This document shows positions 11,369-54,351 of a stretch of DNA of 64,000 bases, in pieces (within the stretch, counting starts at the first letter, position 1; each line of letters begins with the position of its first letter). Below the pieces are notes generated by a model. It worked only from the letters and a program-made list of their open reading frames with translations, was not told the origin of the DNA and did no database searches. Position numbers and translations under genes: made by a program. This DNA is from a virus (lineage: Duplodnaviria > Heunggongvirae > Uroviricota > Caudoviricetes), in IMG/VR virus record IMGVR_UViG_3300021387_000463, positions 348,754-412,753 of that record; one strand, given 5' to 3'.

Positions 11369-12559
11369 ATGAAGCAGCCAATTAAGAAAAAGGAGTTTAA
11401 GAAGCCAAGTATTGCTAGTTTTAAGGAAAAATATGGTTTAACGATGAAATCAAACAAGGATTTGGTAAAGTCTGTTGCAGATAAGCCTACAGATTTTATT
11501 CCACTTCCAGAAGCATTTGCAGATGCAATTAAACTTCCAGGTATACCAAAGGGTTATCTTACAATTGTGACTGGATGGTCAAACACTGGTAAATCAACCA
11601 TTAAAAATTGTCTTATCGCAAGTTGTATTAATAATGGAATACTTCCAGTTATATATGAGACAGAGAACAACTTTGACTTTCAATATGCGATTGATTGTGG
11701 CATGAAAGCAACACCTATTTATGATGATGTAGAGGTTGAGGATGTTGATGAAGAAACTGGAGAGATTACAACCCATACAGAGAAAAGAATTATTAATTAT
11801 GATGGAGAATTCTTATATTTTGATAATAAGATTCTAGCTGAAATGTATGGTAATCGTGATTATTCAACTGGAAAAGAATCTAAAACTAAACGTAAGGAAG
11901 CAGTTCTTGAGGACATTGCATACTCTATAAATGATTTGTTAGATGCACAAGATAGAGGTGAAATCCAACAGCCAATGTGCTTTATTTGGGACTCTATTGG
12001 TTCTATTCAGTCGTTTAAGTCACTTGAGAGCAAGAGTGGTAACAATATGTTTGATGCTGGTGCAATTTCGCAATCATTCAGCAACATTATCAACAATAGA
12101 ATTCCATCTTCAAAGAAGGTTAGTGAAGAGTTTACAAACACATTCTTCTGTGTTAACAAGATTTGGAATGATTCAATGAATTCAATGGGTGGTGTACCTT
12201 CAATCGAGCTTAAGGGTGGTAAGACATTCTTCTATGGTGCAAGATTGATTATCCATCTTGGAGGTATCGGTAAGGCTGCTACAAAGAAACTTGATGCAAC
12301 TGCAAAGGGTAGCAAGTATCAGTATGGTATCACAACCAAGATAAGAACAACTAAAAACCAGTTACCAACACCTTGGAATGTAACATACGAAGGTGAAATG
12401 TCTTGTGTACATAATGGTCTATTGAATCCAAAGGCACTAGAGGAATACAAGAAAACCTACATGAAGGATATTCTTGCAAAGATTGAAGAGACAAGTGGTA
12501 AGAAACTTGACTTAACAGAAAATGATGTACAATTCACTGAAGAAGATTCTGAAGAGTAA
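11369..12559 (+). CDS. UvsX/RecA-like recombinase
   Basis: Walker A GWSNTGKST, 'IYETE', Walker B FIWDSIGS, 'KGGKTFFY'. Confidence 0.9.
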   Translation: MKQPIKKKEFKKPSIASFKEKYGLTMKSNKDLVKSVADKPTDFIPLPEAFADAIKLPGIPKGYLTIVTGWSNTGKSTIKNCLIASCINNGILPVIYETENNFDFQYAIDCGMKATPIYDDVEVEDVDEETGEITTHTEKRIINYDGEFLYFDNKILAEMYGNRDYSTGKESKTKRKEAVLEDIAYSINDLLDAQDRGEIQQPMCFIWDSIGSIQSFKSLESKSGNNMFDAGAISQSFSNIINNRIPSSKKVSEEFTNTFFCVNKIWNDSMNSMGGVPSIELKGGKTFFYGARLIIHLGGIGKAATKKLDATAKGSKYQYGITTKIRTTKNQLPTPWNVTYEGEMSCVHNGLLNPKALEEYKKTYMKDILAKIEETSGKKLDLTENDVQFTEEDSEE

Positions 12560-12720
12560 TGAGTTTTGAATATACAGTTAAATATAGACCACATCGCATT
12601 GTAGATTATATTATTACAAATGTTAGGCATAATGAAGCTGACGATTCAGTTGTAATAGAATATAGCAATGGGGAATCAATAAAACTTAGTTTAGCAGATT
12701 TAATTGGACATGAAGCTTGA
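12559..12720 (+). CDS. Small ORF, 53 aa (MSFEYTVKYRPHRIVDY...)
   Basis: Translated by hand; TAATG coupling with the recombinase gene. Confidence 0.5.
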   Translation: MSFEYTVKYRPHRIVDYIITNVRHNEADDSVVIEYSNGESIKLSLADLIGHEA

Positions 12721-44134: not shown

Positions 44135-46120
44135 ATGGCAAATTTAAAAGTAAATAACTATCATAATCTGAAATTAAGGATTAACGGAGACGAATATTGG
44201 GACTTCTTTGTTAATAAGGATTCTTATGGTTCATTTAAGATTAATGGACTATATGATAATTGCCTTATATCCTATATAGACCTTTGTGACAGTGAATGTA
44301 CTGATGGCTCAGAATGGGTTTACAGTAAAAGCGGTTACACATGGGACAAATCATTGGCACTTGGTTATACCTTATATAATATAACATATACTGGAGTTGA
44401 TAATGGTCTTTTCACATTCCGTAAGGATAGAATTACCAACAAGGACTTCCTAGAGATATTCCAAAAGAACAAGCTTAAGATTGAGGAAAACGACTATAGA
44501 TTAAAACTCCATGCAGTAAGTGGAAATACTTTACAATATGAGTATCCTCTACATATCGAAGAATGTTATACAAAGCTTAATGGTGGCTTCTTCCAAGGCT
44601 TCTTCAAAACAGAATGTGACAAGTACCAAATACTTCCTTCATCATTCGAGCATGGCGATACACTTAACTTCGAATTCACATTGAAAAAGTGTGACTTGGA
44701 GAAGGAATCTGATAAGACATTGAATGACAAGTATCCAGAGAATAAGGGTATATTCTTCTATATCGGTACAAGAGCAGAGAATAAGTGGATTTATATGTAC
44801 GATGAGAAGGATGAGGATGGCCTTGAGGAATGTTATGAATTGGGTGTTGATGATTTCGTTGAAGATGGTGAGATAGACAAGAAAGACCATATCATTGGAA
44901 ACTTCTATAATCCAAATCCTGATTTTGATGGATATGACCCATTTGAACTAGGTGATTACACCAATTACAATTACTATGATGAAGATTTGTATGCTGACGA
45001 TTATTGTGATTGGGATGATATGTATGACTATCTTGAGATAGAAACTGAGAAGAAGCCTAAGACTATAGATGAAAATGCAAGACATTCAACCCTTACATGG
45101 TGCTGTGGGGAGATACAAGAAAAGGATTACATATTGAAGCCTTGGTTTCATGGCTGTGGGTGTCCAATATCATACAAGAGAATGCCAAAAACAGATAAAG
45201 ACCCATTTGACCCAAATCCATTGAAAGGATGTACTGAATTTGGTGATGACTATATATTCGACAATGGAGAGGTAATCGGACTTGATGAAGCTATAGATTA
45301 TATTGAGGCTGAACTTGATATTTCAGACTTCGAATATGAAACAGATAACGGTTTTAGACTTTCTGAAGGAAATCAATATTACTTCTATACCGATAACAAG
45401 TTCTTGTTCTTTGACAGAACCAAGACTGGTTTCACTGTTTCAAATTGGGTTGAAGGAACACAAATCATGTTCTCTGGACGTAGAAGCAAGTTTAAGGGGA
45501 ATTTATTCATCCTAATGAATCGCACAAAGACTGGTTACACCGTTAATACTATTGATGAGCTTCGTGACCAATCAGCAAACGAATATAACCCTTATAATGA
45601 CATCTATAATAACGCTCTAGCTTTTAGAATTACAGATAAGGGAGAAATAGGTTATAGAATGCTAACAATTGACTGTGAGAAGGAAGGTAGGGATAAGACA
45701 AACATCATCGAGGGTTATTCATTTGAGAATGTAATACTAGATTGCGAATGGACAACTGTTAATGTTAGAATTACGTTCACATTCGGAAAAATGAAAATCA
45801 TGTTTTATGTTAATGGTAAGTTGGTTTACATAACAAAAGACCTTCCAATGCTTAACCTAAAGGCTCTTAATGAAATATATGACAAGCAAGAGGGTGTTCC
45901 TTATAATATTTCACTTGGTGGCGGTACACAAGGTCTTGCAGAGACAATACAACCAAACTATATGCTCAATCCAACAAGGGTTTATCCTCTTGAGAAGGCA
46001 TTTGCTGGTAGTTTCATCGGTTATATCTCTTCATTCAAAATTTATAACTGCTTCATGGAACAGATGATAATAGAACATAATTACAAATACGAAAATAACA
46101 AATTAAAAATAGACAACTAA
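44135..46120 (+). CDS. Probable structural protein with a LamG/ConA-like beta-sandwich and acidic Cys-rich insertion
   Basis: 'GIFFYIGTRAENK', 'IMFYVNGKLV', 'ISLGGG', 'FIGYISSFKIYN'. Confidence 0.6.
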   Translation: MANLKVNNYHNLKLRINGDEYWDFFVNKDSYGSFKINGLYDNCLISYIDLCDSECTDGSEWVYSKSGYTWDKSLALGYTLYNITYTGVDNGLFTFRKDRITNKDFLEIFQKNKLKIEENDYRLKLHAVSGNTLQYEYPLHIEECYTKLNGGFFQGFFKTECDKYQILPSSFEHGDTLNFEFTLKKCDLEKESDKTLNDKYPENKGIFFYIGTRAENKWIYMYDEKDEDGLEECYELGVDDFVEDGEIDKKDHIIGNFYNPNPDFDGYDPFELGDYTNYNYYDEDLYADDYCDWDDMYDYLEIETEKKPKTIDENARHSTLTWCCGEIQEKDYILKPWFHGCGCPISYKRMPKTDKDPFDPNPLKGCTEFGDDYIFDNGEVIGLDEAIDYIEAELDISDFEYETDNGFRLSEGNQYYFYTDNKFLFFDRTKTGFTVSNWVEGTQIMFSGRRSKFKGNLFILMNRTKTGYTVNTIDELRDQSANEYNPYNDIYNNALAFRITDKGEIGYRMLTIDCEKEGRDKTNIIEGYSFENVILDCEWTTVNVRITFTFGKMKIMFYVNGKLVYITKDLPMLNLKALNEIYDKQEGVPYNISLGGGTQGLAETIQPNYMLNPTRVYPLEKAFAGSFIGYISSFKIYNCFMEQMIIEHNYKYENNKLKIDN

Positions 46121-46121
46121 T

Positions 46122-46601
46122 ATGCCAAGCAAAAGTAAATCACAACAGAGATTCTTCGGTATGGTGGATGCGTACAAAAAAGGTGAACTGAAGAATCCAA
46201 GCAGCAAGATAAAGAAAGCTGCAAAGGGAATGTCAATGAGTGATGTCAAGGATTTTGCTGAAACAAAACATAAGGGACTTCCAGAGAAGGTTGAGGAAAA
46301 TATCATAAGATTGACTGAATCAGACCTTCACAATATTGTAAATGAAGCTGTATATAAGATATTAAAAGAGAATAACTTCATAAGCAACAAATCGTTAGGT
46401 GCTATGGAGGATGCATTTCTTCCAAAGAAAGGTATTGACATTTTAAGTAAAGGTGTTAAGGTTTTACGTGGCGATATTCGTCCAGACGCTTATTATACTG
46501 AAGGTCATTACACAAACAGAAATACAGATTTGTTAGCCGATGCAATAATAGAATATCCTGATGGAAAAAGACATATACTTATGAGAAAAAGGAGAGCTTG
46601 A
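46122..46601 (+). CDS. DUF3008-like domain followed by the shared IIRLTESDL motif
   Basis: 'MPSKSKSQQRFFG...DFAETKHKGLPEKV', then 'NIIRLTESDLHNIVNEAV'. Confidence 0.7.
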   Translation: MPSKSKSQQRFFGMVDAYKKGELKNPSSKIKKAAKGMSMSDVKDFAETKHKGLPEKVEENIIRLTESDLHNIVNEAVYKILKENNFISNKSLGAMEDAFLPKKGIDILSKGVKVLRGDIRPDAYYTEGHYTNRNTDLLADAIIEYPDGKRHILMRKRRA

Positions 46602-46613
46602 TACTCTCCTTTT
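46587..46613. terminator. Bidirectional terminator
   Basis: AAAAGGAGAG/CTCTCCTTTT at the convergent junction. Confidence 0.7.
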
Positions 46614-48034
46614 TATTGCACATAGTCATTCATAACGAAGAAGTCATCAATGACACCCATCTTCAATGCAGCACGATATGCTGTCTGATTCCCTTTGAAG
46701 AACTCAGTCTTGGTATCATACTTCAATGCCTCTTCCTCGATGTGCTTGTATGTCCAGTATCCTTTTTTGTGCTGTTTTTGTCTAACTAGCCAGTCCATTT
46801 TTTCATTGAAACCGTATCTATATGACATTAAAAATGCTGTTAAATTTTTTTCCTTGAACTCTTCTTTATTAGAATATTTTTTTGCTTCGTGCATAATATT
46901 TTTTTCATTTTTCCAGTATCCTTTGGGATGTTTTCCATTATCATTATTTAACCATATCATTTCATCAAGCCATTTGTTTTTTCTAGCTGACTCATATGCT
47001 CTTTGTGATAAAAATTTAAACTCACCTCTAGTTTTATATTTCTTTGATTCATTTATAACATTTTCTTTGTTTTGCCAATAGCCTCTTGGCTTTCTTTCTT
47101 TTGGCTTTTCGAACCAGTCCATTTCACCGAACCATTTATTTTTCCTAGCTGATTCATATGCCCCTACATTGTTTTTTTGAAACTCACCCCTAGTTTTATA
47201 TTTTCTAGCTTCGTTTATAACATTTTCTTTGTTTTGCCAATGACCATTTGGCACATTCTTTTTTTTATTCAGCCAAGTTAATTCATTTATGTAGCCATGA
47301 TTTATTGCAGCACGATATGCCCCACAAGACTTATTTCTAAATTCACCCCTAGTTTTATATTTTTTTGCTTCATTAATTATGTTATTTTTATCATTCCAAT
47401 ACTTATTTGGCACATTTTGTATTTTTGGTAACCAAGTCATCTTATCAATCCAGTTGTTTGTAATTGATAAATGATATGCTTGCGGTGCATTTTTTTGGAA
47501 TTCGCTTCTTGTTTTATATTTTTTACCTTCTTCAAAACATTTTTCTTTACTCCACTTCTTGCACATGTGGCCAAGACTACCACAATGTTGCTTGTTAATT
47601 ATTGTAAAGCCTTTATTTCTATAATATTTCTCCCAATAATCTTCTCTTTCAGCACCTTGTAATACAGTCAACCCTTCTTCCAATACTTCGATTTTAGGGA
47701 TTTCCGTATTAAATTCTTTGGCAAATTTATAAACAGTATCTTTTTCTCTTGTTCTATGTTGATGGTCTCTTAATTCTAGATATATTGTTCTACCAACATA
47801 CACAGCATTCTCATTTTCAAAATAATATCTGTATACAGTATCAACTGGGTCTTTACATACATTTTTTTTAGTCAACCAAGTCATCTCATCTAACCAACCG
47901 TTTTTAAGAGACCTTTTATATGCTCCGCAAGAACCTTTACAAAACTCTGCCCTTGATGAATATTTCTTTGATTCATTAATGGCATTTTCTTTTATTAACC
48001 AGTAATTTTTAGGCTTATAATTTTTTTTAGACAT
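46613..48034 (-). CDS. Free-standing GIY-YIG homing-endonuclease-like protein with seven ~53-aa repeats
   Basis: 'TVYRYYF...VYVGRT...RDHQH...REDYW...INK' nuclease core; repeats W..ENVINEAKKYKTRGEF....GAY..A....W. Confidence 0.8.
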   Translation of the reverse strand: MSKKNYKPKNYWLIKENAINESKKYSSRAEFCKGSCGAYKRSLKNGWLDEMTWLTKKNVCKDPVDTVYRYYFENENAVYVGRTIYLELRDHQHRTREKDTVYKFAKEFNTEIPKIEVLEEGLTVLQGAEREDYWEKYYRNKGFTIINKQHCGSLGHMCKKWSKEKCFEEGKKYKTRSEFQKNAPQAYHLSITNNWIDKMTWLPKIQNVPNKYWNDKNNIINEAKKYKTRGEFRNKSCGAYRAAINHGYINELTWLNKKKNVPNGHWQNKENVINEARKYKTRGEFQKNNVGAYESARKNKWFGEMDWFEKPKERKPRGYWQNKENVINESKKYKTRGEFKFLSQRAYESARKNKWLDEMIWLNNDNGKHPKGYWKNEKNIMHEAKKYSNKEEFKEKNLTAFLMSYRYGFNEKMDWLVRQKQHKKGYWTYKHIEEEALKYDTKTEFFKGNQTAYRAALKMGVIDDFFVMNDYVQ

Positions 48035-48193
48035 GTTATTGTTTTTTTTTTTACTTATTTTTCTAGTAAGAATATAAAAAATTGTTGTGTTTATAAACTT
48101 TTATACATATAAATAGTATTAAAAAACAAAATATAATCAAGTCTTTTTTATATTTATTTTTAAGAAAATAACAAAATAATATTTTGATAAATA

Positions 48194-50521
48194 ATGAATG
48201 GACTTTATTACTACAAATTAGTGTCTGAATACCCAGAAGACGTAACGAAGAACTGCAAGCTAACAATCACAGAGATTGACAGTAACTTTAAAACTCTTAA
48301 GGACAATGACATTAAAACGGCTGAATTTGTAAGAGGTGAAGACTGCGATAAGTCAGATGGTACACTTGTTCTTACAAGGAACAATGGTGACAAGATTATC
48401 GTTCCTCTTGATGTTAGCCTTTGCAAGAATCTAGCATATGATTTAGATGTTAGTGTTGCTGATTGTGAGAAGAGTGGAGCAACTCTTACAATATCCTACA
48501 AGGATAATGCGAGGGATGATGAAGGTAATCCAATCGTTCACACTGTAAAACTTGAGAACGTCATTACAAAGGACAACCTTAGAGACGTACTTGGAAGTGA
48601 TATTCTCACAAAAGTTATTACAGATGCTTCATTGAAGGGACTTGGCACTATGCGTTCTCCACTTGGTATTGCAGGTGTTGAGAAAACAGGTATGTTGGCT
48701 CCAGCTATCAAGTTGTTGGATTTGACCGAGGGTGACAAGTTACCAGAGGTTGCTAAATCTAGAACTAGATTCGTTACAAGAGAGTATGTTAATGACTATG
48801 GTTATCTTTACAGTGGCATTATTAGAGACAGAAATGGTAATCCTATTGGTGGAGGAGTATATAAGATTCAAGAGATTCTTGACGAACAGTATGAGAGAGA
48901 CGAGATTTACAAGGAAGTAGAAAGTAGAGAATACTACTGGCACGTTCCTTCAAAGGCTGATTGGGATGCATTGCTTGACTCAATCGAACCTTGTGACTAT
49001 CGTAACCACAAGTCAGCACAGTGTCACATTGAGCTTGGTAAACTTGCTGGTAAGTACCTTAAATCAGAGTGTGGATGGATAAATTCAGAATATGAATGCA
49101 CATGTACAGGAAAGAGACCTTACACTAGCTGTAGTACTAATAACACATCAGTTAGCGAAGACATTGATTCAGATGATTACATCTTCGATAATACTGATAC
49201 AATACCAAATGATAAGGAAATTAACCCAGTTGGTGTTGACAAATATGGAATGACAATTCTTCCAAGTGGTACTGCTGGTTTCAAGAAAAATACTGAAAAA
49301 CCATATTACAATGGATTCAAAGAGACAACAGCATTTTGGACAACAACTGTTATTGCTCAAGGACAAGACACATATGTTAAGGTGTTCAATGATAATATGA
49401 GTGGTGTATACCAAGTTGCTGATTGTCCAGACCCATATTATTCAGTAAGACTTGTAAAAAAGTATGATGGTAACAACTATCGTGAGACTGAATATATTGA
49501 TGGTGTTCTTTACAGATGCATCTTGTTCCCAGAAAGTGGCCAGATTTGGCTTGCTTCTAACTTCGCAGATAAGAACAGATTCTTGACACTTGATAACTAC
49601 AAGACTGCTGGAGCAAAAGCACCAGAGGTATTAGACCCTAATGGTGGTTATCTTCCAAATGAGAAGAGAATTGAAATGTTCATCAACGAGTACAATGGAC
49701 GTTACTGGGAGAAGAAGGTAATGGATGAGGGTGTTACAATCGTAATACAGAATCCTTGCTTTGATTCAAGAAGTGGAGATACAGTTGAATTCTGTTGGAT
49801 TGACGGTGATGGATATGAGCGTTGTATCGAGGTTGAGATTCCAAAGGTTGCTCAGAGCAATATTGAGTACAGAGTATATTTGACTGAGGATGGATGTGAC
49901 AAGGTTTTGAAAAACACTGATGACCTTGTTGTTGAGAGAGTTCTTAGTATATTAGTACCAATGATTGATGAGGAACGTTGGGAGCGTGAAAAGTCTGACG
50001 TTGTTCTTAGTGGAATGATTGAAGACCTTCGTGATGACCTTGATGAAGAGATTTCAGATAGAACTGCTGCTGACGAGGTTCTTTCAGGTGCAATCGACAC
50101 TCTTCGTGAAGACCTTGATAATGAAATCGAAAGAGCAATCAGTGCTGAAACCGAACTTTGGGAAGCAATCGCAGAAGAGGCTTCGGCTAGAACTGCTGCC
50201 GATGAGGAACTTTGGGAGGCACTTTCTGCTGAGACTGAGGCTAGAATCGCTGAAGACAAGAGACTTGACCAGAGGATTGATGATGAGATTGAGAGAGCAA
50301 CCGCAAGAGAAGATGAAATCGAACAAGAATTATTTGATGAGATTGAGAGAGCAACCGCAAGAGAAGATGAAATTGATGGCCAGTTAATCGACTGGGAGCA
50401 GAACCCATTCACAATGAGTGCTGCAACCGAGGGGGACTATAATATGGTTCTTCCTTCAAAGGATGGAATTGAAGAGCACTCTATAAAGATTAAGTTCGAT
50501 GGAAACTTTGGTGAGATTTAA
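48194..50521 (+). CDS. Fibre/adhesin-like protein with a Fibrobacter-succinogenes-major-paralogous (FISUMP, C-lectin-like) domain and C-terminal coiled coil
   Basis: 'LTITEIDSNF' N-terminus; YGYLY, WHVPSKADW, AGKYLKS..GW, GMTILPSG, FWTTT and YSVRLVK motifs; E..RA..AE..L repeats. Confidence 0.75.
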   Translation: MNGLYYYKLVSEYPEDVTKNCKLTITEIDSNFKTLKDNDIKTAEFVRGEDCDKSDGTLVLTRNNGDKIIVPLDVSLCKNLAYDLDVSVADCEKSGATLTISYKDNARDDEGNPIVHTVKLENVITKDNLRDVLGSDILTKVITDASLKGLGTMRSPLGIAGVEKTGMLAPAIKLLDLTEGDKLPEVAKSRTRFVTREYVNDYGYLYSGIIRDRNGNPIGGGVYKIQEILDEQYERDEIYKEVESREYYWHVPSKADWDALLDSIEPCDYRNHKSAQCHIELGKLAGKYLKSECGWINSEYECTCTGKRPYTSCSTNNTSVSEDIDSDDYIFDNTDTIPNDKEINPVGVDKYGMTILPSGTAGFKKNTEKPYYNGFKETTAFWTTTVIAQGQDTYVKVFNDNMSGVYQVADCPDPYYSVRLVKKYDGNNYRETEYIDGVLYRCILFPESGQIWLASNFADKNRFLTLDNYKTAGAKAPEVLDPNGGYLPNEKRIEMFINEYNGRYWEKKVMDEGVTIVIQNPCFDSRSGDTVEFCWIDGDGYERCIEVEIPKVAQSNIEYRVYLTEDGCDKVLKNTDDLVVERVLSILVPMIDEERWEREKSDVVLSGMIEDLRDDLDEEISDRTAADEVLSGAIDTLREDLDNEIERAISAETELWEAIAEEASARTAADEELWEALSAETEARIAEDKRLDQRIDDEIERATAREDEIEQELFDEIERATAREDEIDGQLIDWEQNPFTMSAATEGDYNMVLPSKDGIEEHSIKIKFDGNFGEI
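50281..50373 (+). repeat. 39-bp exact direct repeat with a 54-bp period (DEIERATAREDEI x2)
   Basis: Copies at 50281-50319 and 50335-50373. Confidence 0.9.
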
Positions 50522-50523
50522 TA

Positions 50524-53500
50524 ATGTTGAAACAATATAAATTGACAATGGATACAATTAACAGATTACAATTTAGACATCACGAAGAGATATTCGAGAC
50601 AAGAGAGGATGCTCTTAAGTATATTTGTAAGACTTTGCCAAGAGAAGGTGGTGAAGGATTGGCTGAACCAGGCTCTCCTTACACACGTTCACTCTTTGCA
50701 GAGCCAACCATTCTCAGATATAAAAACACTGAGGAAGAGGGTACTTGTAATGATGGATGCAGCAAAGGTCCACACATCATCATTGTTATCGGTTCTCAGA
50801 CCAACGATGACGATAGAAAGCCAGAGGAGAATAAGTATTGTATCATAGATATCGACAAGACAGAGGATGAGATTAAGAATCTTGAGGAAGAGCTTGAGAA
50901 GGCTATCAAGAGCCTTACAATAATTGCACTTAATTCTGACACTCTTAACCTCTACGCTGAGAAGACAGAGGATGGTACACTTGTAAGTGGTGACGTTAAG
51001 ACTGCTGAGACACACGTATTTGACGGTCTTGTTAAGGAGAACAACTTAATGATTGTTCCTACAGATGACCTAGCAGGTCCAGCAGGACTTTTCATCTATG
51101 TTGACCTTACATATGATGAGGCTACAGAGACCTTTACATTTATCGTTACAAATGCTGACGGTACTCTTAAGAAGCAAGCAGTTAAACTTCCTAGCAACTA
51201 CCTTGTAAGTGGTGAGTATAAGAAGGAAGACGAATCTATCCATCTTCACATGAAGAATGGTGATGATATACTTATTAATTGTGAACAACTTATTGATGAG
51301 TGGAAAGTTGAGGGTGAGGCTTCAACTACTCCTATTGTCCTCAATAGGACAAACGTTGGTCCAGATGATGAGCAGCACACAGAGCATCACCACACAGAGC
51401 CTTGGCAAGATATTCTTCGTGCTGATGTTAGAGTTGCTGATTTTATCAACACTAACATTCTTGAGAAGACTACTGATGGTAGATACCTTTATGTTGATGG
51501 TAAGGCAACAAACATTGTTTACTACTACAATGGTGAGAAGAGTAATGTAAGTGAGCAGCTTGACAAACTTAACAAAATCAAGATTTCTGCCGATAATGAC
51601 AATATTATCTGGAATAGAACTGATGGTTTCTTTGCAAGTGCAAAACTTGATTACATTTCAAACAAGAATAAACTTGTCTTCACTACTTCAACTGTAAGTG
51701 GTGGTACTATCACTAAGGAGATTCAGCTTAACTCAGTTGAGTTGTTCCAGAATGTCTATTATGACAGAAATACTGAGGAACTTGTTATTACCTATAAAGA
51801 CAATGAAGGTAATTTGAAGGTTATCAGAATCCCTATTAGTGATATGTTTGATGAGTGGGATGTGTTAAATGATGCACATAGTGTTAAACTTGTCAAATCT
51901 CCACACCACGTTTCTGGTAAGGATATTCTTACTGCTGACGTTAATATTTCTTCTATGGAAAATAACATCCTTGAGGAAATTGGCGAGGGTAACGTTCACG
52001 CACTATTTGTTAAAGGTACTTCTGACAACATAAAGTATAATGATACCACAGTTGAGAGTGCTCTTGATGACCTTGCAGCAGAGGATGCAGCAATCAACGA
52101 GAAGATTGACCAAGAAATTTCACGTTCAACAGAAGAGGACGAGAAGATTGAGAATACAATCGGCTCTGGTTTCTCTACAGACGCTCATGAGACAGTTACC
52201 TACAAGTTCAACCAGTTGCAAGAGGAGGTTAACTCAGAGGCTGAGAAGCTTCAGAATGAGATTGACCGTTCAACTGCAAAGGACGATGAACACGATGCTA
52301 AGCTTGCTGAGCAGCAAGCTGAAATCGAGGCAATCAGTGCGGATTCAGCCAACAACATTAAGGATATTATCAACAACGACCATTCAATTGACGTTGATAA
52401 GACAGACCAAGTTAGACCTGTGATAAGCGTCAACTTGAGCGACCATGAGCCTTATAATATAATCAGACTTGAGGGTGATGGACTCTACAGTTTCATTGAT
52501 TTGGGTTATGATTCAGATACAAACAAATTGATATTCACAAGGTCAGACAAGGATTCAAGAGAGAACAAGACCAAGGAGATACAGCTCAACAGTGTACCAT
52601 TCGACATCAGATATGACAAAGACCGTGAGGTTCTTATTATTACTTATCACACAAGCGAAGGTGACAAGACTGTGGAGATTGACCTTCATGACTTAATACA
52701 TGATGAATGGACGGTTCAAGACACTGAAACAGTTACATTAAATAAGAGTGTTGTAGTAAGCGGTGGACCAGATGTATTAACTGCAAAAGTTAAGATATGC
52801 CACCACGAAGACAACGCAATAGAAGAACACAATGACGGTATCTATGTACACAGTTATAGCGGTGAAATAGCCGACTTGGGTTCTAAGATTGATACGGTAA
52901 GCGGTGACGTTATCACAGAGAAGGCTCGTGCTGAAGCAGCAGATGACGAACTTGATAGAAAGATTAATGCTGAAGCATCAGCAAGAAGTGAGGCTGATGA
53001 TGACATATATATTAAAATAAGAGAGTTCAGTGGTGATACTTCTCTTGAACTTCGTAGTATTAGGGGGGATGTTTCAAGGATAAGTGGTGACGTGTCTAGT
53101 TTAGAAAGTGACCTTGATGACGAAATCGAAAGAGCTAAAAATGCTGAGAGTGGGTTGACAGAAGCAATACGGAAAGCCAAAATCAAGTTTAGTCCTTCTA
53201 AAGATGGATTGGTATCAGATGGTACAATAGAATTTAATAATTATGAAGCCAACAATAACATTGTTGAAGCTAAAGTAATGCTTCAAGATGGTACTAACAT
53301 CATTAAAGTAGGTAATGGACTTTATGCAACAGTTGATTTGGGCTATAGTGCTGCAACGAATACATTGGAATTAATAACTTCTAGTGGTTCAAAAACAATT
53401 CCATTAGCTGGAGTTACTTTTATAGATAGATGCTATTATGATTCAGTTAATAAAAACATCGTTATTGTTTATAAGGATGGACAAGGAATAGAACATACAA

Positions 53501-54351
53501 CAACCATTGGTGTAACAGACTTGTTCAATGAGTGGGATGTTAATAATGCAACATCAGTTGGGGCAATACACCTAGTAAAAGAAACTGCTACGTCTGGTGG
53601 TACAGATAAATTAAGTGCATATGTCCTTCTTGACGATGAAATTATTGACCCTAATACTGGTATACCAACTGGTATAATGCAAGAAGGTACACCAAATGCT
53701 ATTAGAAAAATAGGAAATGGTCTATTTGTCAAAGATAACACCGAAAATATAGAATGTATAAGCGGTAGAACTGATGCTATATATAAGGCAGCATTTGGCG
53801 AACTAGTTCCTAGTGGATGTGGAGAAGCGATTGAATATATCCCAGACACGTTATCTTGTGTTATAAGTGGGGCAACTTCATTGTATGATGCAGATAGGCT
53901 GATGGCACATCAGATTTGTGAAATCCTTGAGATGTGGGTGAGCGGTATGACGTGTACGTCTGTTTCAAATTGGGTAGATGACGGTGCTAATAAGAAAATG
54001 CTTGTTGATGTTAGACCTTCTCATGGTAATCTCATGAATGGTATGACAGATGATGATTTGTATATTACAGACTTAACTGGAGATACAATCGAGCACGGTG
54101 TGACTGAATTTACAGATACAAATGCACTTAGAATAGTTTGCCTAGAAGAAGGCGGTGGTGTTATACCAGACATATCAAGTCCTCAGAATGGCATATATTT
54201 GAGTAATGTTTGGGATTGTGGTAAGTATTATCAAGAGTCTACAGAGGCTGATGAAATGGAAGAAGTATCTGGTGACGGATATAATGTAAATTATTTCACT
54301 GATGAAGATACTAGTGCAAGGAACTTTAATTACATGAACAATGTAAGATAA
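50524..54351 (+). CDS. Long repetitive fibre-like virion protein
   Basis: Four repeats of 'DLxYD...L.F...KEIQL...YYD...LVITY...DLFDEWDV' alternating with coiled coils. Confidence 0.7.
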   Translation: MLKQYKLTMDTINRLQFRHHEEIFETREDALKYICKTLPREGGEGLAEPGSPYTRSLFAEPTILRYKNTEEEGTCNDGCSKGPHIIIVIGSQTNDDDRKPEENKYCIIDIDKTEDEIKNLEEELEKAIKSLTIIALNSDTLNLYAEKTEDGTLVSGDVKTAETHVFDGLVKENNLMIVPTDDLAGPAGLFIYVDLTYDEATETFTFIVTNADGTLKKQAVKLPSNYLVSGEYKKEDESIHLHMKNGDDILINCEQLIDEWKVEGEASTTPIVLNRTNVGPDDEQHTEHHHTEPWQDILRADVRVADFINTNILEKTTDGRYLYVDGKATNIVYYYNGEKSNVSEQLDKLNKIKISADNDNIIWNRTDGFFASAKLDYISNKNKLVFTTSTVSGGTITKEIQLNSVELFQNVYYDRNTEELVITYKDNEGNLKVIRIPISDMFDEWDVLNDAHSVKLVKSPHHVSGKDILTADVNISSMENNILEEIGEGNVHALFVKGTSDNIKYNDTTVESALDDLAAEDAAINEKIDQEISRSTEEDEKIENTIGSGFSTDAHETVTYKFNQLQEEVNSEAEKLQNEIDRSTAKDDEHDAKLAEQQAEIEAISADSANNIKDIINNDHSIDVDKTDQVRPVISVNLSDHEPYNIIRLEGDGLYSFIDLGYDSDTNKLIFTRSDKDSRENKTKEIQLNSVPFDIRYDKDREVLIITYHTSEGDKTVEIDLHDLIHDEWTVQDTETVTLNKSVVVSGGPDVLTAKVKICHHEDNAIEEHNDGIYVHSYSGEIADLGSKIDTVSGDVITEKARAEAADDELDRKINAEASARSEADDDIYIKIREFSGDTSLELRSIRGDVSRISGDVSSLESDLDDEIERAKNAESGLTEAIRKAKIKFSPSKDGLVSDGTIEFNNYEANNNIVEAKVMLQDGTNIIKVGNGLYATVDLGYSAATNTLELITSSGSKTIPLAGVTFIDRCYYDSVNKNIVIVYKDGQGIEHTTTIGVTDLFNEWDVNNATSVGAIHLVKETATSGGTDKLSAYVLLDDEIIDPNTGIPTGIMQEGTPNAIRKIGNGLFVKDNTENIECISGRTDAIYKAAFGELVPSGCGEAIEYIPDTLSCVISGATSLYDADRLMAHQICEILEMWVSGMTCTSVSNWVDDGANKKMLVDVRPSHGNLMNGMTDDDLYITDLTGDTIEHGVTEFTDTNALRIVCLEEGGGVIPDISSPQNGIYLSNVWDCGKYYQESTEADEMEEVSGDGYNVNYFTDEDTSARNFNYMNNVR

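Follow-up and report, generated by a model that had tools for sequence, protein, structure and literature searches.

The window analysed here is the terminal 64 kb (64,000 nucleotides; positions 348,754 to 412,753) of the 412,753-bp record IMGVR_UViG_3300021387_000463 of a jumbo gut phage (Caudoviricetes). On its minus strand lies a gene for a protein of 473 amino acids (aa) that is likely a free-standing GIY-YIG homing endonuclease, mosaic in make-up and armed with an array of repeated modules. The protein has a nuclease core with one repeat unit in front and six behind, and belongs to a large and widespread family. Its gene is shared with another phage at an identity far above that of the flanks and contains a recombination junction within the array. 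DNA binding, target choice, cleavage and homing are predicted from sequence and structure models. The protein is basic (isoelectric point 9.58; 97 lysine and arginine versus 61 aspartate and glutamate residues) and has 1,624 homologues of comparable length.

The catalytic core, taken alone, matches the GIY-YIG family PF01541 (E 3.9e-4), and so do the cores of all 12 related genes compared, with a best E-value of 5.8e-10. The relatives P0092 and P0111 score 29.5 bits against it. The family T5orf172, in comparison, was matched by two of these 12 cores (E 0.049). In a search of the PDB with a core profile the two best matches were I-TevI (1mk0 and 1ln0, E 0.02-0.04), and the hidden Markov model alignment of the core to these chains pairs both tyrosine motifs, the R..H motif and the glutamate. 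The same two structures were the top PDB matches of the AlphaFold model in Foldseek (template modelling score 0.67-0.73 on the target, probability 0.97-0.99); the accompanying E-values of 0.65-1.0 are weak, a consequence of the length of the query model (473 residues). Residues Y68, Y70, Y79, G81, R89, H93, E131 and N147 are unchanged throughout two sets of relatives, 34 close and 12 distant. The GIY and YIG tyrosines, the arginine, the histidine, the glutamate and the asparagine of the core stand at a spacing like that of I-TevI, where the roles of the catalytic residues are established. Matches in the BFVD were other viral GIY-YIG or 'intron-associated' endonucleases, plus unnamed proteins. 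On the strength of the Pfam, PDB profile and fold matches and of the invariant residues, we take the protein to be an intact I-TevI-type GIY-YIG nuclease for which cleavage is predicted.

A profile built from the protein's own units finds exactly seven copies, each with an E-value of 1e-24 to 1e-28. One precedes the core and six follow it, as stated in a preliminary description of the window made from the letters alone; the seven strings quoted there for the third helix are all found as written. A unit has about 47 aa, predicted to form three helices and a short turn, and is joined to the next by a linker of 5-7 residues (K, R, P, G or N). In the DNA the array forms direct repeats at a spacing of 159-162 bp. 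The units of the protein are 28-68% identical to one another, and their net charge is +2 to +6 in units 1-6 and -2 in unit 7. A single unit modelled alone reached a predicted local distance difference test (pLDDT) value of 92.3; the whole-protein AlphaFold model reached a pLDDT of 82.7 and a predicted template modelling score (pTM) of 0.35. As the pTM of the whole protein is just 0.35, the units are regarded as independent beads on linkers, and the description of a GIY-YIG nuclease joined to independently folding modules is borne out by these models.

The unit matches nothing catalogued. A Pfam scan of 14 single units at E<=10 yielded no relevant family, the unit profile (A2) had zero matches among PDB sequences, and Foldseek with the unit had 0 matches in the PDB. 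Compared with 48,161 chains in VIA-align, the unit reached no Z above 3.2, a value too low for a fold assignment, with DNA-binding domains scattered at Z 2.1-2.4 among unrelated helical proteins. The label 'helix-turn-helix-like', given to the unit in the preliminary description, is for this reason unproven. DUF723 was ruled out as the identity of the unit; the DUF723 matches in relatives, which are precomputed or weak, stem from a separate N-terminal zinc module. Our literature searches found no description of the all-helical three-helix unit, which, as far as they show, is itself undescribed; Pfam PF26058, listed for some relatives, may already model it.

Mobility is apparent from the contig L006, which carries the same locus. 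Its version of the protein is 94.5% identical to that of the window, whereas the 661-aa and 775-aa proteins that flank the gene are 77% and 52% identical. Sliding DNA identity between the two lies at 91-100% from ~46,790 to ~48,165 and at 40-77% outside. Because the block of high identity ends at ~48,165, the mobile unit comprises the gene and ~130 bp upstream of it. Contigs of two independent DNA runs confirm this edge, being identical to the window up to 48163 and continuing with 138 unlike letters. At the other end, a hairpin between convergent stop codons (Table 1) forms the outer edge of the shared DNA, the similarity among the window, L006 and L004 beginning at the stop codon of the gene. 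Two features typical of free-standing homing genes, an identity far above that of the flanks with sharp edges and a presence/absence or decay series at one locus, are observed here; a third, cutting of the allele without the gene and copying into it, is predicted.

The gene runs against its neighbours, as described before; the genes at 44135..46120, 46122..46601 and 48194..50521 are all on the plus strand. The upstream region that travels with it contains TATTTATA (48115-48108, minus strand), at the place where it had been reported. Its promoter function is putative, since a generic sigma-70 scan found 11 promoter-like sites versus 9.8 expected from shuffles and hence no enrichment. The same region holds a motif, TATAAAC..ACAA (about 48082-48098), which a motif alignment shows to be kept in five related loci. 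Contigs of 151-177 nt from two metatranscriptome runs of one sample match inside the gene with 0-10 mismatches; as these are contigs in RNA libraries, transcription of the gene is not established by them.

The cassette is itself a mosaic. Relative to L006, 62 of 1,251 nt differ over aa 1-417 and 30 of 168 nt over aa 418-473 (Fisher p 3.5e-8), with a breakpoint in the linker between units 6 and 7. Unit 7 has a GC content of 41.8% versus 26-34% in the other units, and uses AAG four times and AAA once, GAG three times and GAA once, and TTC four times and TTT never. This codon contrast, previously read as a sign of shuffling, thus marks a real junction. At the protein level unit 7 is 96-98% identical to its counterparts in L004 and L022 and 88% identical to that in L006; its DNA is 84-89% identical to all three, with 84% to L006 versus 95-96% for the rest of the gene. 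From this pattern of divergence, unit 7 is an older resident layer, and units 1-6 with the upstream region were exchanged recently.

Within the array, units 4 and 5 resemble each other most, with 68% aa identity and 74% DNA identity over 141 nt. They reach 86% over 76 nt (47015-47090 versus 47177-47252) and show two blocks of 83-90% separated by a divergent helix-2/turn segment. The likeness of two adjacent units was therefore noted correctly, and their 'recent duplication' overstated at 74% DNA and 68% aa identity. Helix 3 of unit 4 has two alleles among nine orthologues, and the allele of the window is the same as that of unit 5, which suggests, at the sequence level, conversion between these neighbours. 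Close relatives differ by whole units: P0004 is without unit 3, P0012 without unit 4, and P0013 has an extra one. Together with the two helix-3 alleles and the breakpoint between units 6 and 7, such losses and gains substantiate the plasticity attributed to the array.

Table 1 Features of the putative homing-endonuclease gene and its surroundings (positions in the window)
Feature	Position	Strand	Basis and remarks
Putative homing-endonuclease gene, 473 aa	46613..48034	-	Open reading frame list; phrog_20046 E 6e-60 (unknown function)
GIY-YIG catalytic core, aa 60-156	47567..47857	-	PF01541, I-TevI profile and fold matches, invariant residues
Repeat unit 1, aa 9-55, N-terminal of core	47870..48010	-	Profile E 2.7e-28
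Repeat unit 2, aa 158-203	47426..47563	-	Profile E 2e-26
Repeat unit 3, aa 210-256	47267..47407	-	Profile E 3.4e-28; missing in P0004
Repeat unit 4, aa 263-309	47108..47248	-	Profile E 5.3e-28; missing in P0012
Repeat unit 5, aa 317-363	46946..47086	-	Profile E 1.3e-28
Repeat unit 6, aa 371-417	46784..46924	-	Profile E 1.2e-24; DNA 96% identical to L006
Repeat unit 7, aa 424-469, acidic, GC-rich	46628..46765	-	Profile E 2e-24
Recombination breakpoint, unit 6/unit 7 linker	46766..46815		Sliding identity to L006 rises from 83-84 to 91-98 per 100 columns
Upstream region co-travelling with the gene	48035..48165	-	90-95% identity to L006 to ~48165, then 47-77
7-bp GC-containing hairpin with T-runs on both strands	46590..46615		Between convergent stop codons; read from the sequence

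The states of the locus were compared in nine distinct related contigs, the window included (L005 is identical to L004). In all nine a tail of the unit-6/7 type is retained, inverted as in the window. The gene is fused in two of them, the window and L006. It is split in five (L019, L020, L021, L022 and L024), which have a nuclease open reading frame (ORF) of 312-419 aa and a two- or three-unit ORF in another frame. The break invariably falls in an A-rich linker; an ATG stands before the first tail unit in four of the five, and in L022 the break lies in an A10 run and the tail has no ATG before it. These split contigs may be frameshifted fusions or two-cistron arrangements. The other two contigs, L004 and L016, have the tail only, as an intact two-unit ORF of 107-109 aa (L004:5577-5900 (-), L016:4019-4348 (+)) directly behind the upstream motif TATAAAC..ACAA, and these ORFs may represent expressed stand-alone DNA-binding proteins. 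The start of the ORF in L004 resembles the N-terminus of the nuclease gene in L022, and this likeness suggests that recombination between the first unit and unit 6 deleted the intervening part in frame. The comparison with empty alleles in relatives, proposed in the preliminary description, thus returned fused, split and tail-only states and no empty allele.

The proportion of non-synonymous differences in the tail (pN) is 0.04-0.19 and that of synonymous differences (pS) about 0.5-1, near saturation. As non-synonymous change is low while synonymous change is nearly saturated, the tail has been under purifying selection. The contrast is not specific to the tail-only lineages, and with synonymous sites saturated a ratio of non-synonymous to synonymous substitution rates (dN/dS) is not quotable. 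A tentative and rather unlikely reading is that the tail (units 6-7 or 5-7) is no debris and represents a DNA-binding gene without a nuclease that is resident in this phage clade. Tail-only genomes would make a two-unit protein of 107-109 aa from the shared upstream motif, and this protein may occupy the homing site or the promoter, giving immunity to re-invasion or acting as a repressor. On this view a newly arrived nuclease-array cassette would have fused in frame with the resident gene to give the 473-aa gene of the window, and the arrays would act both as an aiming device and as a recombination handle for the loss and regain of the nuclease.

We consider it highly improbable that the gene is a domesticated nuclease or regulator which benefits the phage, by exclusion of competitors or by repression via the array, and is not selfish. 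Such a role would accord with the retention of the two-unit tail in all nine contigs, with amino-acid change of 0.04-0.19 per site versus roughly saturated synonymous change, and with the existence of nuclease-free arrays. The nuclease part, however, shows presence/absence and replacement at one locus, is far more alike between phages than the flanks are, and belongs to a family with multiple copies per genome. Selfish homing genes are classically recognized by presence/absence, excess identity over the flanks and multiple copies.

The family to which the putative homing endonuclease belongs is very large. A search of 1.84 billion representatives with the unit profile returned at least 8,097 proteins at E<=1e-3, and 2,012 of them also reached E<=1e-30; the larger number counts protein clusters at 50% identity and is a lower bound. 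Family proteins have 4-18 units. Among the best 146 representatives outside the existing set, 127 have a GIY-YIG core according to the core profile, and of the remaining 19, eight match PF01541, five of them above the cut-off; five of the 146 are pure arrays without a nuclease. Across these proteins the core is preceded by 0-12 units and followed by 0-11, so that the 1+6 layout of the window lies at the asymmetric end of the family range. Relatives occur at 67 places in 27 phage records, with up to five per genome, and include genes of cultured Vibrio, Rhizobium and Burkholderia phages and of Lak megaphages; they are annotated as 'hypothetical' or 'GIY-YIG nuclease domain-containing'. The names given to seven large clusters of the family are 'hypothetical protein' or none, and a search of the ESM Atlas gave solely 'hypothetical protein' clusters. 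The whole protein had no relevant match in Pfam (E<=1, one chance laminin match aside) or NCBIfam, and neither it nor the profile A1 matched any PDB sequence.

The genome that contains the window has two paralogues of the gene, both of the GIY-YIG type (L002:1357-2307 (+) and L003:1480-2265 (-), at about 101 kb and 265 kb). In one, the three-helix module is present as 2+2 units; the second starts with the core and ends in a K/E-rich tail, whose short 'K..YY..HKEE' repeats are of another kind. Tandem zinc modules of the DUF723 type are found in at least four further genes of the genome (loci L007-L013; G000:C1:42982-43467, 333325-333804, 84844-85146, 12391-12708), one gene having three copies followed by a different C-terminal domain. 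In the relatives P0033 and P0092, a DUF723 module at the N-terminus and the units belong to a single polypeptide. A 411-aa ORF with eight units and no nuclease domain lies in an unrelated viral contig of 125 kb (L025:3555-4790 (+)); two neighbouring units in it have the look of a very recent duplication.

We infer DNA binding by the units from their charge, their exclusive link to the nuclease, their placement to either side of the active site and their co-occurrence with DUF723. A survey of variation within the unit covered 266 proteins, which together supplied 1,593 distinct and nearly complete units. The scaffold is conserved at W4, E12, K15, Y16, F22, A29, Y30, A33, W38 and W44, and columns 8, 10, 17, 20, 23, 27, 28, 31, 32 and 34 are the most variable; at least ten columns exceed 3 bits of entropy. 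Columns 20 and 23 lie in helix 2, columns 27 and 28 in the turn, and columns 31, 32 and 34 in helix 3. The variable columns, mostly exposed positions in helix 2, in the turn and on a single face of helix 3, fit a recognition surface.

In the preliminary description this array was likened to those of transcription activator-like effectors (TALE) or zinc fingers. A code of that kind, in which each unit reads a short subsite through a few helix-3 residues and swaps of units re-target the nuclease predictably, is in our judgement very improbable indeed. The modular architecture, natural variants that differ by whole units, the clustering of the most variable columns on helix 2, the turn and helix 3, and the swap of a helix-3 allele in unit 4 are what such a code would lead one to expect. 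Units within a protein, however, share a mean identity of about 45%, adjacent pairs of at least 70% identity number 11 among 1,209, and five variable columns yield 1,207 residue combinations among the 1,593 units, three columns 746, so that a small alphabet carried by a fixed scaffold is absent. These columns also drift among the nine orthologues at this one locus (within-orthologue diversity 0.23-0.45), the model has no fixed arrangement or regular packing between units (pTM 0.35), and intact relatives without a whole internal unit point to tolerance rather than to a strict register. The analogy with a TALE-like code is accordingly not supported, and recognition would at most resemble that of idiosyncratic zinc fingers or homeodomains.

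At the opposite extreme, the units might be non-specific nucleic-acid tethers that provide affinity or sliding, the choice of site being left to the nuclease or to special units such as unit 2. This we judge unlikely. Basic columns common to nearly all units (6, 14, 15, 19, 24 and 35), the tolerated loss of units, unit numbers from 4 to 18, and the unit-2 type that is kept immediately after the core across the subfamily argue for it. Against it, helix 3 of units 2, 3, 5, 6 and 7 is nearly fixed in the nine orthologues, and unit types are kept at their positions, which is unexpected for interchangeable non-specific tethers.

A homing endonuclease with an array arm, as favoured here, would work as follows. 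An I-TevI-like catalytic domain (aa ~60-156) sits within a beads-on-a-string array, with one unit on its N-terminal and six on its C-terminal side. The units would lie along the DNA on either side of the cut site with their most variable residues (in helix 2, in the turn and on one side of helix 3) facing it, giving a long and mismatch-tolerant recognition site. Cutting of the other allele in a co-infecting relative would be followed by repair from the genome described here, whereby the cassette (about 46,780-48,165) is copied. The array itself changes by recombination between its own repeats, through loss and gain of units, conversion between neighbours and mosaic crossovers. In the window, units 1-6 and the putative promoter region were shared recently with another phage and are joined in frame to the older resident unit 7.

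Several observations weigh against this explanation. The full-length 473-aa query had no GIY-YIG match in the Pfam scan, and the core alone scores marginally under the Pfam cut-off (21.1 versus 22.6 bits). The unit has no detectable likeness to a known DNA-binding fold (0 Foldseek matches; best Z 3.2), and its variable positions are also simply the exposed ones, at which any small domain varies. Unit 7 is acidic and for this reason may not bind DNA. Since nuclease-free arrays exist (L025 and five of the 146 representatives), units can serve roles beyond the aiming of a nuclease. Finally, a truly empty allele was found in none of the viral contigs, the metagenome collection not having been scanned.

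Among known systems the protein comes closest to I-TevI, I-BmoI and the Seg endonucleases of phage T4. It shares with them the catalytic fold and the spacing of the motifs, I-TevI being the best match in both structure and profile searches, and, by prediction, the tethering of the nuclease to a separate extended binding part. Like the Seg genes it is a free-standing gene between phage genes, on a putative transcription unit of its own. It differs from I-TevI and Seg in that no NUMOD module (NUMOD1, NUMOD3 or NUMOD4) or zinc finger is found (Pfam E<=1; 14 single units at E<=10); its arm is built from seven all-helical 47-aa units that occur in no catalogue searched. In I-TevI the nuclease is N-terminal and the binding domain C-terminal, whereas units stand on both sides of the nuclease here. 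TALE and C2H2 zinc-finger arrays likewise use tandem small modules as a nuclease arm, in numbers that vary naturally, but the near-identical scaffold, the small specificity set and the predicted superhelix have no counterpart in the present array.

Barth et al. (2023, PMC10448857) describe phage homing endonucleases of the T5orf172 type with repeated CapR, DUF723 and DUF4397 domains as 'beads on a string'. These modules are presented there as zinc-finger domains with a CxxC...CxC motif, and DUF723 is treated as a DNA-binding domain of homing endonucleases. The paper also reports recombination between degenerate repeats that leads to in-frame deletion, and swapping of domains between genes. Repeated modules on a GIY-YIG-related nuclease and recombination between repeats are thus common to those enzymes and to the gene of the window. 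In contrast, the present unit is all-helical and without conserved cysteine pairs, the gene has no DUF723 match, and the cores of its family score as PF01541 (12/12) and merely in 2/12 as T5orf172. Vibrio phage Helene, which appears in a repeat figure of the paper, is not among the 28 phage records that hold the unit. Of the modular, naturally re-targetable nuclease put forward in the preliminary description, the module array stands and the code of one module per subsite is not supported; the general idea is already in print for other repeated modules of phage homing endonucleases (PMC10448857).

The significance of the gene lies in a very large and unnamed family, of at least 8,097 clusters, whose arm module occurs in up to 18 copies and on both sides of the nuclease. 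If this module binds DNA specifically, it would be a new DNA-recognition domain, varied in nature by loss, gain and exchange of units. The locus also displays an unusually complete life cycle of a homing gene, which is found fused, split or reduced to its tail and whose recombination junction has been mapped. Homing endonucleases are natural cutters of long DNA sites and a source of parts for genome editing; the array described here offers no ready-made programmable code.

Rfam and tRNA scans over the window were empty, and a terminator scan did not flag the hairpin at 46590..46615; every related locus carries a different hairpin at this position. The neighbouring 159-aa protein (46122-46601, plus strand) has a conserved N-terminal portion of ~80 aa, which is 87% identical in L004 and matches six PHROGs of unknown function or annotated as 'virion structural protein'. 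Neither L004 nor L006 has a related C-terminal half, which places a second exchange boundary near 46,370. On the other side of the gene, the 775-aa and 1,275-aa proteins encoded at 48194-54351 (plus strand) contain long E/D/A-rich, coiled-coil-like repeats, are 41-54% identical among relatives and are probably fast-diversifying fibre or tail proteins.

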